A DNA stretch of 64,000 nucleotides, taken from the NCBI GenBank assembly GCA_040006635.1, contig JBDTWO010000001.1, forward strand, positions 25,998 to 89,997, in the 5' to 3' direction. The position numbers and the translations under genes were made by a program. Shown here piece by piece: positions 42,846 to 48,215 of this stretch (position 1 is the stretch's first letter; every line of letters begins with the position of its first letter). This stretch comes from Chloroflexota bacterium (GTDB lineage: Bacteria > Chloroflexota > Anaerolineae > Anaerolineales > Villigracilaceae). The notes beneath the pieces are model-generated. The model saw only the letters and a list, made by a program, of their open reading frames with translations, was not told where the DNA came from and did no database searches.

Positions 42846-43481
42846 CTAGATCTTCACGATCTTCTCAGTCGTTTCGATCACTTCTGCCTTCAACTTCCCC
42901 GCGGATAGTTCCTGCAATTCCTTTTGAAAACCTTCAAATGACTCAACCGGGAATTGTAGAGTCATCGTAATATCGCCTGCAAAATCTTCACCCACCACTT
43001 CCCCGCCATTACGCCCCACCATCAAGCGGACTCGCTCCAACAAGTTATACGGAATCGCCAGCATGGACACATGGACCTCAACTCTTCTTCCGCGTTCCAC
43101 CGCATTAACCACTAACTGTGTGGACTCGGTATACGCCTTCACCAACCCACCAGTGCCCAACAACGTCCCACCAAAATAACGCGTGATCACAACTGCCGCA
43201 TCGCCAAGTCCACTGCCACGTAGGACCGCTAGAGCAGGCTTACCCGAAGTCCCGCTCGGCTCTCCGTCATCCGAACAAAATTCTGCCACCGTATTCCCGC
43301 CGCCGATGATATACGCAGGGACGTTATGACTCGCATCCGCAAATTCTTTTTTGATGCGCGCAATGAACGCCCGAGCTTCATCCGCGGTGAAGACCGGTGC
43401 AAGTGTGGCGATGAAACGCGAATTGACAACTACATGTTCACGGCGGATTTCTGTGAGAGGGACGGAATAGAGTTTAGACAT
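42846..43481 (-). CDS. yigZ: YigZ / IMPACT family protein
   Basis: SRFIA, ASHN, SDDGEPSGTSGKP, RYFGGTLLGTGGLVKAY. Confidence 0.93.
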   Translation of the reverse strand: MSKLYSVPLTEIRREHVVVNSRFIATLAPVFTADEARAFIARIKKEFADASHNVPAYIIGGGNTVAEFCSDDGEPSGTSGKPALAVLRGSGLGDAAVVITRYFGGTLLGTGGLVKAYTESTQLVVNAVERGRRVEVHVSMLAIPYNLLERVRLMVGRNGGEVVGEDFAGDITMTLQFPVESFEGFQKELQELSAGKLKAEVIETTEKIVKI

Positions 43482-43620
43482 AAACAGGATTTTACTTGAT
43501 TCAAGCCTCATGACGGGGCACATCGAAAAAACCGTTTTCATCCATTGCAACCGCAAGTCTCTCCTCCCATCACCCGCCCGACGATACCCTAACGGGCACA
43601 CGTGAACCGTCAGGCTATTC

Positions 43621-43696
43621 TACAAAGTCCGCTCAAGCGGACTAGCCGACTTTCAGTCGGCTTCGTTTGACTAGCATGGACGTTCACGTCCATGCG
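43621..43696. repeat. Stacked-hairpin REP-like element, copy of 3672-3753
   Basis: TACAAAGTCCGCTCAAGCGGACTAGCCGAC...GTCGGCTTCG...GCATGGACGTTCACGTCCATGC. Confidence 0.8.
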
Positions 43697-43702
43697 ACCA
43701 CA

Positions 43703-43876
43703 GCGGTATAATTTCCATCAATCATGCAACCCAACTTTCCATCACCGCAGAAAAGAAGTCAACTCCATACCCTCTCCCCGCGGGAGAGGGACAAACCGAC
43801 ACGCCGATCAATCGTCACAATCAGGGTGAGGTCCTAACCCCTCGCATCGAAAAGACCGTTTTCGTCAGTTACCGCC
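43703..43876 (+). repeat. Leader repeat copy A: promoter, 37-codon uORF and dead 5' end of the TIR gene
   Basis: 174 bp colinear with 44549-44722; the TIR ATG is replaced by CTA and a stop follows ..YRHKNIP. Confidence 0.9.
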
Positions 43877-43899
43877 ACAAGAATATACCGTAGGTAAAC

Positions 43900-44433
43900 A
43901 TGATTGAGTCTCGTTATTGGAAAGATGATTTACTAAAACACGCCAAAAAGTTAAAACCTGTCAAGCATCCAAAACGGTGGTCAGAAAAAGGACAAGTCAA
44001 TTTTGAAAAAGAAATCATAGTCTCATTCTTTAAAATCAGAAAGTTGTTTGAAACAAATAAAGTTTCAAGTATAAGCAAAAAGCATAAAGTGAAAATATTT
44101 CGCTACCCAATTGGATCCAAGAAAGTCAACAACATGAATTATTGGAATATTCATGAAATTTATGATCTAGCAAAGAAGAGCAACGTCGAGAAAAATATAG
44201 TTTTTATATGCAATCAATTAATTCACGGTGGAGCAACATTCGCATTTCAAGACAACGATAAAAACTGGGGAGGAATATTTACCTGTTCTGATTTTGAGCG
44301 AGGCAGATATATTTACGAAATCCCAATTGAAGAGATAATCACGATCTTCAACCTTGTAGGAAATGATTATCCCAATCATGTGACTTTTACATATTCGAAA
44401 GAACTTGGTGACTATGAAATTGAGACTGACTGA
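43900..44433 (+). CDS. AT-rich hypothetical protein (possible HEPN-like)
   Basis: 177-aa open frame with an ICNQLIHG motif; sits between leader repeats. Confidence 0.7.
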   Translation: MIESRYWKDDLLKHAKKLKPVKHPKRWSEKGQVNFEKEIIVSFFKIRKLFETNKVSSISKKHKVKIFRYPIGSKKVNNMNYWNIHEIYDLAKKSNVEKNIVFICNQLIHGGATFAFQDNDKNWGGIFTCSDFERGRYIYEIPIEEIITIFNLVGNDYPNHVTFTYSKELGDYEIETD

Positions 44434-44455
44434 TCATTATCCACGCCCTAAGTTC

Positions 44456-44722
44456 TCATCACCACAGAATAGAAATCAACTCCATACCCTCTCCCACTGG
44501 GAGAGGGACAAACCGTCCCGCCGATCAATCGTATCAATCAGGGTGAGGGCGGTATAATCTCCCTCAACCATGCAACCCAACTTTTCATCACCACAGAAAA
44601 GGATTCAACTCCATATCCTCTCCCACTGGGAGAGGGACAAACCGACACGCCGATCAATCGTCACAACCAGGGTGAGGTCATGACCGCTCGCATCGAAAAG
44701 ACCGTTTTCATTAGTTACCGCC
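44456..44722 (+). repeat. Leader repeat copies B (44456-44548, partial) and C (44549-44722, complete)
   Basis: Direct repeats containing CCCTCTCCCACTGGGAGAGGG...GGGTGAGG; copy C leads into the intact TIR gene. Confidence 0.9.
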
Positions 44723-45939
44723 GTGCAAATTTACCATGGGCATTGGCAATTTATCAAAACCTGAAGAGCGAAGGCTATGATGTATTCTTCGATTATCTCA
44801 GCATTCCTAGTGGTGATTTTGAAAACATCATAGTCGAAAATATAAAAGGTCGCACTCACTTTGTAGTGATATTAACTCCTTCAGCTTTGGAAAGATGTAA
44901 TGAGCCTGAAGATTGGCTAAGACGTGAAATAGAAACTGCAATGGATGAAAAACGTAACATTGTGCCACTTATGTTGGAAAGCTTTGATTTTGGCAGTCCA
45001 TCTACCATCAAAGCGCTCACTGGCAGACTTGAGAAATTAAAAAAATACAACGGTCTGCGTTTGCACTCAGAATATTTCTTTGAGGGTATGGATAGGCTTC
45101 GTAAACAATATCTGAATATCTCATTAGATACTATCATTCATCCCATTTCAGAAGAAGCAAGACCCATCACAGAAGAACATCAAGTTGCAGCTGACGAAGT
45201 CAACCCCATTGAAAAAACAGAGCTTACTGCACAAGAATGGTATGAACGTGGATATGTATTTCAGGATGAAAAGAATTATGACGAAGCCCTGCGTTGTTTA
45301 ACAAACGCCATCAATCTTAATGGTGACTTTGCGAGGGCATATTTTCTACGAGGGTCGGTAAAAGGTATACAAGGTGATTACGAGGGAGCACTTTCAGATG
45401 TGAACAACGCTGTACGCATCGAGCCACAATTTCTCGAGGCTTACGGAGTTCGAGCTGTAGCGAGAGAAAATACAGGCGATTTAGATGGAGCAATTACTGA
45501 TTACACTAAGGTCACTCGGGATAAGACACTAGATAAAGATCTTGCCGCAGATACTTTTCACCGTCGTGGACTTGTGCGACTTGATAAAGGCGATCTAATT
45601 AAAGCTAACAAGGACTTTGATAAAGCTATACAACTAAAACCAGACTCTGCTGAATATTTTTTTAGCCGCGGGGTTGCTCACATTATCAACAATAATTTTG
45701 ATAATGCAATGGCAGATGTTGAAACTGCTATTCACCTTGACCCAAATTATATTGACGCATACTTCAACCGAGCTCTGATATGGGAAAAAAAGAAAGCATA
45801 TTCTTCTGCTATTGCCGACTATCAAAAATATCTTAAACTAGGCGGCAATAGACAAAAGGATGAACAAAAAAAGGTAGGACAGAAAATCAAGACCCTTAAA
45901 GGTAAATTGACCAAGAAAAAATCTCTGAAAAAGAAATAA
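44680..45939 (+). CDS. TIR_2 domain + TPR repeat protein
   Basis: VFISYRR, FVVILTP, WLRREI (putative catalytic Glu), about six TPRs. Confidence 0.9.
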   Translation: MTARIEKTVFISYRRANLPWALAIYQNLKSEGYDVFFDYLSIPSGDFENIIVENIKGRTHFVVILTPSALERCNEPEDWLRREIETAMDEKRNIVPLMLESFDFGSPSTIKALTGRLEKLKKYNGLRLHSEYFFEGMDRLRKQYLNISLDTIIHPISEEARPITEEHQVAADEVNPIEKTELTAQEWYERGYVFQDEKNYDEALRCLTNAINLNGDFARAYFLRGSVKGIQGDYEGALSDVNNAVRIEPQFLEAYGVRAVARENTGDLDGAITDYTKVTRDKTLDKDLAADTFHRRGLVRLDKGDLIKANKDFDKAIQLKPDSAEYFFSRGVAHIINNNFDNAMADVETAIHLDPNYIDAYFNRALIWEKKKAYSSAIADYQKYLKLGGNRQKDEQKKVGQKIKTLKGKLTKKKSLKKK

Positions 45940-45970
45940 AAAGGAGTGGACTTTGAAAGTCCACTCCTTT
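45940..45970. terminator. Bidirectional terminator
   Basis: AAAGGAGTGGACTTT / AAAGTCCACTCCTTT. Confidence 0.85.
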
Positions 45971-45974
45971 GCTT

Positions 45975-48215
45975 TTAGTAACGTCCTCTTTGCACCTCAA
46001 CCTCCGGATTCGCCAACTCATCCTCCCGCGCCGGGAACACCTGCACCGCGCACGCCTTGAACTCAGGGATCAACGCCTGCGGGTCGAGCGCGTCGTTCGT
46101 CAACAGGTTCGCGGCGGCTTCGGCGAAATGCCACGGGATGAACACCACACCCACCGTCGTCTTCTCGGTGACGGTGGCGCGCAAAACAATTTCGCCGCGG
46201 CGCGACGTCACTCGCACGGGCATGTTATTCGTGATGCCGTGCATCTCCGCGTCCGCGGGGTGCATCTCGGCGCGCGCTTCGGGGTACGCCTCATTCAGCG
46301 CCGAGTTGCGCGTCATCGTGCCGCCGTGCCAGTGTTCGAGCAAGCGCCCCGTCGTCAAAATGAACGGATATTCGTCATCGGCTTGCTCCATCACAGGCAC
46401 ATAATCGAGCACGTGAAATTTTCCGCGCCCGCTGGGGAACGTCTCTTTGAACAGCGTCGGCGTGCCGGGATGATTCAAATCAGGCACGGGATAGATCAAC
46501 CCGACCTTATCGATGCGCTCATACGTCACACCCGCGTAATCCATGTTGACGGACGCCATCTCACGCAGGATTTCCTCCGGCGACGCATAATCCCATTTGG
46601 ATGAAGTGCTTCGCTTCAATATAAGCTCGAGCCTGCTCGCCAAATCGCAGAGAATTTTCCAGTCTGGTCGCGACTGTCCTCGGGGCGGTTGAGCCGTCCG
46701 CACCCGTTGGACTCGCCGGTCGGTGTTGGTGAACGTCCCATCCTTTTCCGCGAACGGAGTCGCAGGCAGGAAGACATCCGCAAACGCACCAGACTCGTTG
46801 ATGAACAGATCCTGCACAACGAGAAATTCCAATTGCTGCATGTGCTTGCGCGTCTCGTTGAGATTCGGCTCAGACATCATCGGGTTCTCGCCCATGATGA
46901 ACAACGCCCGCACGCCGCCCTCATGCGCGTGACCGAGAATTTCAGTGGTGGTGAGACCGAGTTTGCGCGAGAGACCGCCGGGTTCGATATTCCAGGTCTG
47001 CTCCCATTTTTCGGCATTGGCTTCGTTATCGACGCGCATATAGCCGGGATAATGGAACGGCATCGAGCCCATGTCGCTCGCGCCCTGCACGTTGTTCTGT
47101 CCGCGCAACGGATTCAGTCCCGTGCCATCGCGCCCGATGTGACCCGTGAGGAACGCCAAATGGATGAGCGCCATCGCGCTGGCGGTTCCATGCGAAAGTT
47201 GCGAGATGCCCATGCCCCAATAAATTGCACCATTCTTCGCCGTGGCATACATGCGTGCCGCTTTGCGAATATCTTCAGCAGGGACGCCCGAAAGTTCTTC
47301 AGCATATTCGGGCGTGAACTTCTCCAGCGACTCGACGAAATCTTGAAAACCTTCCGTGCGCTTCGCGACAAAATCGTTGTTGACCAATCTCTCTTTCACA
47401 ATCACATGCGCCATCGCGCTGAAGACCGGCACATTCGTCCCCGGCTTGAGCGGCAGCCACATCTCGGCGAAGTCAACCAAATCAATACGGCGCGGGTCAA
47501 TGACAATCATCTTCGCACCGTACTTCTCCACCGCTTCCTTCATCTGCAGCGCGATAATGGGATGATTCTCGCCCGTGTTCGACCCTGTAACAATAAACAC
47601 ATCATTTTGGATCACTTGCGAAGCCGTGTTACTCATCGCCGAAGAGCCAAGTGCTTTTTGAAGTGCAACCACCGAACCCGCGTGACAGAGACGCGTGCAA
47701 TGGTCTATGTTATTCGTTCTGAATAATGTTCGCCACATCTTCTGCAACAGATAATTATCTTCGTTCGTCGCCTTGGCGCAACAGTAGACCGCCATCGCGT
47801 CTGAGCCGTCACGTTGATAGATACGGGTGAGATTATCAGCAGTGATGTTGAGCGCTGTCTCCCAATCGGTTTCGACCCAGTCCCAAGGGGAGAGTGACGA
47901 GTGATCAGTCATCAGTGAGCGGTTGCCAAGTTCAGGCGCATCACTTCGACTCTTCCACTGTTCACTGTTCACTGCCAACTGATTACTCTCCCCCAACAAA
48001 TATCTTCTTACAAGCGGCGTCGTCACACGCTTGGGATGATAGATAAAGTCATATCCAAACCGTCCCTTTACACACAAGTTGCCGTGATTGACCGGCGAAT
48101 CAAACGGCGACGTCACCTTGAAAATAAAATCGTCTTTGACGTGTAACTGTAAATTACATCCAACGCCGCAATAGGGACAGGTGGTGGTAACAACACGGTC
48201 TGATTTAATAACCAT
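45975..48215 (-). CDS. fdhF: Formate dehydrogenase alpha subunit, Cys-ligand paralog
   Basis: CPYCGVGC, CVKG, DHCTRLCH, PLRGQNNVQG, P.FK..AV. Confidence 0.9.
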   Translation of the reverse strand: MVIKSDRVVTTTCPYCGVGCNLQLHVKDDFIFKVTSPFDSPVNHGNLCVKGRFGYDFIYHPKRVTTPLVRRYLLGESNQLAVNSEQWKSRSDAPELGNRSLMTDHSSLSPWDWVETDWETALNITADNLTRIYQRDGSDAMAVYCCAKATNEDNYLLQKMWRTLFRTNNIDHCTRLCHAGSVVALQKALGSSAMSNTASQVIQNDVFIVTGSNTGENHPIIALQMKEAVEKYGAKMIVIDPRRIDLVDFAEMWLPLKPGTNVPVFSAMAHVIVKERLVNNDFVAKRTEGFQDFVESLEKFTPEYAEELSGVPAEDIRKAARMYATAKNGAIYWGMGISQLSHGTASAMALIHLAFLTGHIGRDGTGLNPLRGQNNVQGASDMGSMPFHYPGYMRVDNEANAEKWEQTWNIEPGGLSRKLGLTTTEILGHAHEGGVRALFIMGENPMMSEPNLNETRKHMQQLEFLVVQDLFINESGAFADVFLPATPFAEKDGTFTNTDRRVQRVRTAQPPRGQSRPDWKILCDLASRLELILKRSTSSKWDYASPEEILREMASVNMDYAGVTYERIDKVGLIYPVPDLNHPGTPTLFKETFPSGRGKFHVLDYVPVMEQADDEYPFILTTGRLLEHWHGGTMTRNSALNEAYPEARAEMHPADAEMHGITNNMPVRVTSRRGEIVLRATVTEKTTVGVVFIPWHFAEAAANLLTNDALDPQALIPEFKACAVQVFPAREDELANPEVEVQRGRY

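Follow-up and report, generated by a model that had tools for sequence, protein, structure and literature searches.

Displaced heads of a TIR gene bound a probable integrase-free cassette array at the yigZ-fdhA locus of an Anaerolineales bacterium

The interval between the yigZ and fdhA genes of a Chloroflexota bacterium of the order Anaerolineales was analysed within a 64,000-nucleotide stretch of DNA, here called the window (assembly GCA_040006635.1, contig JBDTWO010000001.1, positions 25,998 to 89,997 of the forward strand), in which a repeated leader precedes a gene encoding a TIR-TPR protein. We consider it probable that this interval is a cassette array without an integrase, bounded by displaced heads of a TIR gene and most likely formed by recombination at these heads. 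The conserved left flank is yigZ, a UPF0029 (IMPACT-family) gene on the minus strand (42846-43481) with Pfam UPF0029 and DUF1949 matches, and the conserved right flank is fdhA (formate dehydrogenase alpha, 45975-48215, minus strand, from the list of open reading frames, ORFs). The features from R0 to the TIR-TPR gene are on the plus strand. Next to yigZ lies R0, the oldest TIR-start stump (43510-43555), which reads ATG ACG GGG CAC ATC GAA AAA ACC GTT TTC ... and is cut after about 15 codons, as seen in the repeat search and alignments. It is followed by hp3, a dispersed element of the repetitive extragenic palindromic (REP) type with three strong hairpins (about 43556-43702; hairpins at 43627-43642, 43644-43662 and 43674-43695). 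Neither R0 nor hp3 had been reported in a first-pass annotation made from the letters of this DNA. Then come head A, with a promoter-like box (43703-43729), a REP-like element in the 5' untranslated region (element A, 43730-43833) and a TIR-start stump (43834-43894), an AT-rich cargo gene of 177 amino acids (43900-44433), a further copy of the REP-like element (element B, 44434-44548), head C (44549-44679) and the intact TIR-TPR gene of 419 amino acids (44680-45939). The heads and the older stump split the yigZ-fdhA space into two cassettes, a non-coding one (hp3, promoter box and REP element) and a cargo cassette (the foreign 177-amino-acid gene, REP element, promoter box and REP element), with the intact TIR-TPR gene after them.

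A repeat search of the window aligned copies A (43703-43894) and C (44549-44740) over 192 nt with 87% identity, and BLAST gave 90% identity across 174 nt, in agreement with the 174-bp unit that the first-pass annotation had placed at 43703-43876 and 44549-44722. The inner 102 nt were present in three copies (43730-43831, 44447-44548 and 44576-44677), which were 86-88% identical. The partial third copy, previously placed at 44456-44548, does exist, but alignment set its start at about 44434, right after the stop codon of the cargo. Several other elements of the earlier description were found again: the -10 box (GCGGTATAAT) in both copies (TATAAT at 43707-43712 and 44553-44558), the first TIR codons inside the unit, which also holds the promoter-like box, ribosome-binding site and start codon of the TIR gene, the overlap (ATGA) between the stop of an upstream ORF (uORF) in copy C (TGA, 44681-44683) and the TIR ATG at 44680, the dead TIR start in copy A, where the homologous triplet is CTA (43834-43836), and the unrelated AT-rich gene that follows (43900-44433, 177 amino acids, GC 0.33 versus about 0.52 in the flanks). 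What had been called a REP core is indeed a hairpin element, but it is more than a core, since a dispersed family accounts for about 100 nt of the unit. In the repeat unit, a promoter-like -10 box, a REP-like element in the 5' untranslated region and TIR codons 1 to 14-20 are combined; it is not a dedicated leader.

The boxes of the heads are homologous to those of the native TIR genes of the clade, in which GCGGTATAAT or CCTGTATAAT is followed by CCCCGCAAAGGAGACC or CCCCGCAAAGGAGACCTCCC and then by the ATG. In the heads of the window, the REP-like element is placed between ...CTCAA and the start codon, and the element's own 3' end, GGGTGAGGTC, stands in for the native Shine-Dalgarno sequence. 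Head A (hairpin at 43770-43790, Shine-Dalgarno-like GGGTGAGGTC at 43824-43833) gave 10 of 12 sigma-70-like matches in a promoter scan, its -35-like TTCACG (43683-43688) lying within hp3; head C has its hairpin at 44617-44636 and a Shine-Dalgarno-like GGTGAGG. Element B directly abuts the promoter box of head C, and the same arrangement, a REP end GGTGAGG(TC) followed by (A)GCGGTATAAT, was found at at least nine further loci. The possibility that the promoter box represents decayed TIR codons 15-19 was dropped, as the box, GCGGTATAATCC..CAA, is also found before the Shine-Dalgarno sequence of native TIR heads.

The 37-codon uORFs of the first-pass annotation are present in both copies (43724-43837 and 44570-44683, plus strand), but they are probably not a conserved coding unit. 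Their ATG was kept in all nine promoter-bearing leaders, and downstream of the hairpin three different frames were found, owing to small indels. Because the reading frame shifts between copies, the peptide is not conserved, and a conserved uORF was rejected on these grounds. Dispersed copies of the element elsewhere have TTG or TGG in place of the ATG and are located away from genes. A leader peptide is expected to combine a conserved frame and peptide with alternative RNA structure or coupling; three frames among nine leaders, a weak fold and no Rfam match were found instead. The uORF, which lies within the REP element, appears to be a by-product of it and should stay unannotated as a gene, the 174-bp repeat being a marker of a cassette boundary.

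Both hairpin elements were dispersed in the genome. The REP-like element (unit positions about 26-132) was recovered in some 10 long copies (including C239, C31, C25, C245, C207 and C1:96132), and its hairpin core CCCTCTCCC...GGGAGAGGG occurred many further times; matches were detected in 24 of 61 relatives, every one of the same genus. It folds into one short hairpin of 8-9 bp with a 3-nt loop (fold z -1.6 to -2.1), and an Rfam search of the repeat returned nothing above noise. At least eight copies of hp3 (fold z = -5.5) were found, three of them on C104 and others on C73, C245, C145 and C1:29652. It also precedes the leader in L081, G001, G018 and L115, and a TIR start running into an hp3-type element was seen at seven loci. 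The segments 43730-43833, 44434-44548, 44576-44679 and 43556-43702 are all short, hairpin-bearing, multi-copy, intergenic and confined to one clade, as REP-like elements are. Y1_Tnp genes exist in this genome, one of which (C108, 1663-2075) is flanked by hp3-like hairpins including GTCCGCTTGAGCGGAC, and no Y1 gene was linked to the REP-like element of the heads. The C108 locus (L248, 1295-2114) encodes a 137-amino-acid Y1 (IS200/RAYT-like) transposase with hp3-like multi-hairpin arrays on both sides, the whole unit being enclosed by two versions (74% identical) of a 61-nt stretch from the 3' end of the adjacent gene, which resembles an aminotransferase gene; this is a gene-tail duplication around an enzyme-carrying element. 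In other genomes, the REP-like element without a TIR start flanks small toxin-antitoxin cassettes (L073, G033:C13; L074, G034:C15; L075, G036:C55; L076, G034:C8), which are VapBC-like and HigBA-like as judged solely by N-terminal sequences. There it often stands behind a second hairpin element, CCCCTCTCCCGTCTCCCC...GGGGGAGAAGC, the composite unit measuring about 190 nt.

The 177-amino-acid cargo had no match in Pfam, NCBIfam or PADLOC. Its family comprises 82 homologs with 19 invariant residues and without annotation, and AlphaFold2 predicted a confident fold (pLDDT, the predicted local distance difference test, 93.8), for which the PDB, the sole library searched, contained no match. By composition it is foreign to the locus. 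The gene was AT-rich (GC 0.33) even where it stands alone between housekeeping genes of genomes with a GC content of 0.55 (L251, L253). In every related Anaerolineales context examined (L081, L082-L087 and L256) it stood behind a TIR-start stump; distant homologs were single genes without a TIR start. The TIR-TPR gene (GC 0.39) matches Pfam TIR_2 (1.2e-16) and several TPR families. Its ThsB-like matches were weak and partial (PADLOC 1.7e-07; NCBIfam 2.7e-09, far below the cut-off), and its neighbours are the 177-amino-acid orphan and fdhA, not the ThsA effector (SIR2 or Macro/SLOG) that a Thoeris pair (ThsA and ThsB) would show. The convergent TIR-TPR and fdhA genes are separated by a hairpin with a perfect 14-bp stem and T-runs on both strands (45940-45970), which has the look of a bidirectional terminator.

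The full leader was found in several genomes of the genus, frequently more than once per contig. A leader unique to this locus, with an invariant cargo, had been named beforehand as the outcome that would speak against the first-pass annotation; the search of the genome and its relatives gave the opposite result, because the leader was not unique and the cargo was not invariant. The yigZ-fdhA space is a recurrent variable hotspot. Arrays adjoin yigZ in G017, G013, G018, G009 and G002, and the 3' end of fdhA in G001, G007, G013, G017, G002, G020, L082-L088, L108, L118 and L120; at least one array lies behind gatB (L094) rather than between yigZ and fdhA. Both in genomes of the genus and in independent metagenome contigs, arrays contained 2-6 heads per contig. 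Their contents differ: G001 has five TIR-start stumps and zero intact TIR genes, with a cargo including a JAB/DUF4329 protein, HigB and a 250-amino-acid orphan, and an EcoO109I-type restriction-modification pair immediately upstream of the first stump; G007, G003, G002 and G020 have intact TIR genes at this site; and the near-closed genome G017 (two contigs) has a stump and then a GmrSD gene. On the other side of the hotspot, the last 70-90 nt or so of fdhA (window 45993-46090) occur twice in L087 (1663-1729 and 2771-2856) and in L098 (511-709), bracketing DUF2283/PIN/DUF2281 toxin-antitoxin cassettes, so that the hotspot grows also from the fdhA side, by gene-tail duplication. The present heads are the mirror image of these fdhA-tail duplications.

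The closest homolog of the 177-amino-acid cargo (89% at the amino-acid level) was carried by the independent contig L081, in which the order is hp3, leader, TIR1 (317 amino acids), a native-type stump, the 177-amino-acid gene, element B, leader, TIR2-TPR, a stump and a GerE gene. The window therefore corresponds to L081 minus the TIR1 body, that is, a body between two TIR starts. From this comparison, copy A is most likely the remainder of a TIR paralog whose body is gone here but was kept in L081, and probably does not reflect an in-place duplication serving a new gene. In L082 and L086, a stump and the 177-amino-acid gene lie directly beside fdhA (94% and 88% identical to the fdhA of the window), without a TIR-TPR gene. 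Single heads before intact TIR genes were seen in relatives (14 of the REP type and 17 native), and the neighbouring units were variable in L081, L082 and L086.

The generality of this layout was assessed with one 25-nt degenerate pattern, searched in species genomes (39 loci, mostly from metagenome-assembled genomes, MAGs, of Anaerolineales/Chloroflexota) and in metagenomes (at least 120 stretches), which after deduplication yielded at least 249 distinct TIR starts with sufficient flank. Among the starts listed, 37 run on as TIR genes and 177 lose similarity to the TIR profile 19-51 nt past the anchor ATCGAAAAG; later breaks were seen in just 10, which resemble pseudogenes or genes missed by the filter. 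The junctions had modes at 25-26 and 29-31 nt past the anchor, with a spread of 19-51 nt, and about a quarter of the classes keep 35-51 nt, these estimates having a noise of 5-10 nt within a cargo class. Cassette boundaries fall in TIR codons 12-21. One exact insertion site (TTAC or TTACCGC) was set aside, the junctions being spread over 20-51 nt and noisy within a class. In stump A, which has CTA for ATG and then TIR codons 2 to about 20, the maximum-likelihood break lies 46-49 nt past the anchor at 43846, and the junction is about 5 nt before the cargo ATG.

Beyond the breaks, the sequences of the 177 stumps fell into at least 81 downstream clusters, and the protein cargo matched at least 138 Pfam families. 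Among these were other TIR proteins, MazF, DUF5677, a SMODS/CBASS cyclase, type II and type III methyltransferases, AbiA/DRT, WD40 and GGDEF. EcoO109I and CfrBI nucleases, GmrSD, HigB, PIN-like proteins, DUF433/DUF5615, nucleotidyltransferases, HNH and DUF4236 were also recorded at the arrays. Unrelated defence, toxin-antitoxin and orphan genes strung between displaced TIR heads are the general layout in this Anaerolineales clade. HigB homologs were uninformative as a route to further heads, the TIR start being found only in the close HigB lineage and other HigB genes having their own operators. No stumps were seen outside Chloroflexota. Intact Acidobacteriota TIR genes in a Terriglobia MAG (L101) and an Acidobacteriaceae MAG (L103) have a near-identical 30-nt start, which may reflect transfer of the TIR family or a strong constraint on the sequence.

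The first-pass annotation had proposed that the duplicated leader supplies an expression signal to captured genes. At 145 stumps analysed, the next gene was co-oriented in 80 cases and opposite in 36, a REP element came next in 21, and no gene was found within 300 nt in 8; in addition, 43 of the 145 cargos had their own TATAAT-like box within 60 nt. Expression supply cannot be a general rule, because 36 of the 116 neighbouring genes face the opposite strand and these 43 cargos bring their own box. Displaced heads may nevertheless drive some of the neighbouring cargo, incidentally.

Sequences upstream and downstream of the core reassort freely. Three kinds of sequence were found before the TIR start, namely the native promoter with its Shine-Dalgarno sequence, a Shine-Dalgarno sequence alone, downstream of a TIR-TPR gene, and the end of a REP element. 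Heads of the REP type and native heads were both found in 11 of 11 cargo clusters with at least three members. The 177-amino-acid cargo itself follows a REP-type head in two cases (the window and L082) and a native head in two others (L081 and L256), and the CTA-for-ATG allele of stump A is common to 35 other stumps with different cargos and to one intact TIR gene (L098). Differences between head types reach codon 3-4, and exchanges must therefore fall within the next 30-45 nt. Several isolated observations concern these same starts. The apparently intact TIR gene of L098 (3200-4012) with CTA for ATG has an ORF that begins at an ATG within the REP hairpin (MPSPFGEGQTDTLINHLNQGEVLTPRIEKTVFISY...), which suggests that the REP element may have been co-opted as an N-terminal extension of the TIR protein; similar in-frame extensions were noted in L119 and in the 309-amino-acid gene of L087. 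In L067 (G017:C1, about 2,845,000), a native TIR head is joined to a REP element at a shared GAAAAG (ATAGAAAAG|AAGTCAACTCC), a microhomology join inside the TIR start.

To account for these arrays, we propose that cassettes would be gained, lost and reshuffled by recombination, with the crossover within the conserved TIR start of about 30-45 nt. Gain could occur by two routes, either a single crossover with an excised circle carrying a head and its cargo or a double crossover of a linear head-cargo-head fragment within one resident head, and loss could result from recombination between direct heads. No dedicated recombinase is encoded at the locus, and the gene-proximal head would leave the TIR gene intact. 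Such head-to-head recombination would reproduce both the structure of the window and its difference from L081, and would amount to a form of insertion with long target duplication. No PF00589 integrase was detected on G000:C1 or on any array contig of eight further genomes of the genus, the nearest being 66 kb away in G017. Carriage by phages was rejected: the motif was not found in context on viral contigs, where the three matches represented one and the same unrelated sequence.

Several points weigh against this proposal. Homologous recombination is inefficient in 45 nt or less, yet reassortment is complete in the 11 recurrent clusters. At least 81 cargo classes are joined in one zone of about 30 nt in a gene of about 1 kb, with no junction deeper in the TIR gene save the 10 later breaks, and plain homologous recombination leaves the first joining unexplained. 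No homogenisation is obvious among the TIR-start copies of G001, which show 2-5 nt of difference. The exact empty site, in which hp3, the leader and the TIR-TPR gene would follow each other without the 177-amino-acid gene, was not found among the relatives. As for the heads, copy C had no -35 match in the promoter scan, and GGTATAAT, considered and rejected as a general promoter consensus of the genome, showed no genome-wide enrichment; the promoter role of the heads is a prediction from consensus matches. The census also has its own bias, as sampling by exact match to a 25-nt pattern favours well-preserved copies, the gene calls are crude (the longest non-overlapping ORFs) and the data come almost wholly from MAGs or metagenome contigs.

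Since head recombination explains neither the first joining of cargo nor the complete reassortment, we keep a dedicated, sequence-directed system as a serious minority possibility. Such a system, encoded elsewhere, would recognise the 30-nt TIR start (ATCGAAAAGNCCGTTTTCATCAGTTACCGC, with the palindrome GAAAAG-N3-GTTTTC), insert or exchange cassettes just 3' of it and duplicate the upstream head; a nuclease, a recombinase or a REP-associated Y1 transposase would be candidates, and on this reading the arrays would represent a new type of genuinely site-specific cassette array. It would fit the clustering of the junctions of at least 81 classes 20-51 nt from the anchor, where the noise of 5-10 nt leaves room for one or two preferred sites, as well as complete reassortment around a segment of 45 nt or less. 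The 30-nt core also seems better kept than the adjacent 19 TIR-derived bases (by eye, on heads sampled via the cargo protein), insertions of REP elements from two families directly follow the TIR start, and the Y1 transposase gene of C108 is flanked by hp3-like arrays and the 61-nt duplication of its neighbour's tail. Against this, no candidate enzyme was linked to the arrays and the array contigs had no tyrosine recombinase, the junctions are not at a single phosphodiester bond (the quarter of the classes retaining 35-51 nt being a case in point), and the 5' boundary of the duplicated head is variable (45 to about 300 nt). IS200/IS605-type Y1 enzymes are not known to make a target duplication, which likewise counts against it.

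The remaining explanations do without any movement of cassettes or give the repeat another function. That the stumps are the remains of decaying tandem TIR paralogs, whose bodies were deleted around genes that had always been there, appears improbable. Tandem TIR and TIR-TPR paralogs do exist, the stop of one gene overlapping in some cases the Shine-Dalgarno sequence of the next (...GTTGGTGAATAGGAGCC..ATG; L064:3815, L077:898, L151:127 and L169:3116), and between L081 and the window a single TIR body, framed by two TIR starts, has been cleanly lost or gained; random deletion, however, predicts stumps of all lengths, whereas 177 end within 51 nt and 10 later, and stumps outnumber intact genes about 5:1. 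Decay also fits poorly with a compositionally foreign cargo and with the occurrence of one cargo after different heads and at several loci (among them yigZ-fdhA and the gatB site of L094). It would likewise be contradicted by one cassette recurring, with unchanged junctions, at unrelated sites in the chromosomes of close strains, a pattern of which part was seen. We regard it as still less probable that the unit is a regulatory leader, TIR expression being controlled by translation of the 37-codon uORF, its stop lying over the TIR ATG, and that the unit is duplicated to confer this control on new genes. The constancy of the uORF ATG in nine of nine leaders would agree with it, as would a distance of 11 nt from TATAAT to this ATG, giving a near-leaderless mRNA, and a 3' end of the element with stops in two frames, the third being the frame of the gene itself, so that any upstream ORF ends at the gene start or fuses to it. 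Its peptide is nevertheless not conserved, running in three frames after the hairpin; dispersed copies lack the ATG and lie away from genes, no terminator/antiterminator alternative was found (fold z just -1.6 to -2.1), no Rfam family matched and copy A has no downstream start codon. Finally, the genome is a MAG of 290 contigs, and the related contigs L086, L087 and L069 end inside the repeat, as might be expected if repeats had been collapsed or mis-joined. We give hardly any credence to such an assembly artefact: A and C differ at about 10% of positions and are therefore not collapsed repeats, the order stump, 177-amino-acid gene, element B, leader and TIR gene was assembled independently in L081 from another sample, and arrays are present in the two-contig genome G017.

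Recombination at the heads, the reading that we prefer, brings the locus close to the insertions with long target duplication, in which repeats of 46-420 bp overlap gene ends and no mobility genes are carried (Nobusato et al. 2000; Furuta, Abe & Kobayashi 2010, PMC2853133). As there, foreign defence genes come without a mobility gene of their own, and the direct repeats are target sequence, often overlapping a gene end. The repeats of the window measure 174-192 nt, beyond the threshold of 30 bp, at 87-90% identity, and the insert is foreign (GC 0.33 versus 0.52), without transposase or integrase, and consists of one 177-amino-acid ORF without a family match. Unlike these insertions, the present ones are iterated, with up to six heads per array, the same gene head stands before at least 81 cargo classes, the duplicated part is the 5' end (promoter box, ribosome-binding site and first codons) rather than a tRNA or a 3' end, and the two sides of the 30-45-nt core reassort. 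The literature searched contained nothing relevant on Anaerolineae cassette arrays or on TIR hotspots with target duplication.

The first-pass annotation had compared the locus with a small integron-like array without an integrase. An array without an integrase it is, but an integron mechanism was not borne out, as neither an attC-type site nor IntI was found. Integron cassettes are mostly promoterless, co-oriented and read from a common promoter, and attC sites are imperfect palindromes of 57-141 bp with R''/L''...L'/R' boxes and a GTTRRRY core; CALINs, which Cury and colleagues are said to have described in 2016, are reportedly clusters of attC sites without an integrase. Like integrons and CALINs, the arrays are rows of unrelated small genes, often of toxin-antitoxin or defence type, with one recurring short boundary sequence, where cassettes seem to be swapped, and contents that vary between relatives. 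They differ in that the array contigs have no IntI, and in that the boundary, of protein-coding origin, has a 5-6-bp palindrome with neither the R''/L''/L'/R' boxes nor the GTTRRRY core. By inspection, no RYYYAAC...GTTRRRY pair was seen at the ends of the repeat, which has a single hairpin of 8-9 bp, and an attC or long-hairpin reading was rejected on this folding and on the Rfam result. Moreover, unlike integron cassettes, 31% of the neighbouring genes are in opposite orientation (80 co-oriented, 36 opposite) and a promoter-like box is repeated at the boundaries. It is possible, though we would not expect it, that a dedicated Anaerolineales system uses the 30-nt TIR start as its attachment site; it would then build integrase-free arrays at gene ends, heads here and tails such as that of fdhA elsewhere, sparing the resident gene and using the heads as portable promoter and ribosome-binding-site modules, an analogue of integrons with a different chemistry.

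Other known systems share some of these features. Putative mobile promoters are near-identical promoter-bearing sequences that recur before unrelated genes of the same or of different genomes; the filter used in their study would remove any block that extends into a coding region (Matus-Garcia, Nijveen & van Passel 2012, PMC3575422). The heads resemble them as a similar upstream block before non-homologous genes (177 stumps, at least 81 clusters), but differ in that the reused block extends through the ribosome-binding site and 14-20 codons of a specific gene family, in tandem arrays where the adjacent gene often has its 3' end towards it. The REP-like element and hp3 are short, hairpin-bearing, intergenic, dispersed, clade-specific and found in composite clusters, as are REP sequences and bacterial interspersed mosaic elements, and Bertels and Rainey reportedly described REPINs with RAYT transposases in 2011. 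Such a comparison covers the inner 100 nt of the unit, leaving the TIR codons and the promoter box unexplained, and the copies of the REP-like element around the cargo are direct, not inverted. In contact-dependent inhibition (CDI) and Rhs systems, displaced orphan toxin/immunity modules retain part of the conserved region of the main gene as a stub, which enables swaps by homologous recombination. The displaced modules described here also keep a stub of a conserved gene part; in CDI/Rhs, however, the stub is internal or 3' in a large gene and the modules are alike in kind, whereas here it is a 5' head and the cargo is unrelated to TIR.

With hundreds of independent junctions at one target, the origin of insertions with long target duplication becomes directly testable in these arrays. 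The boundary marker is a searchable 30-nt string that points to more than 80 cargo classes, many of them unannotated, and because it is so easily searched it could provide a "guilt by position" handle for new defence genes, as attC does for integrons. Anaerolineales, of which very few have been brought into culture, abound in sludge, sediments and groundwater. If the arrays are active, these bacteria would collect and reshuffle defence, toxin-antitoxin and orphan genes by means of neither an integron, nor a transposon, nor an integrase-borne island.

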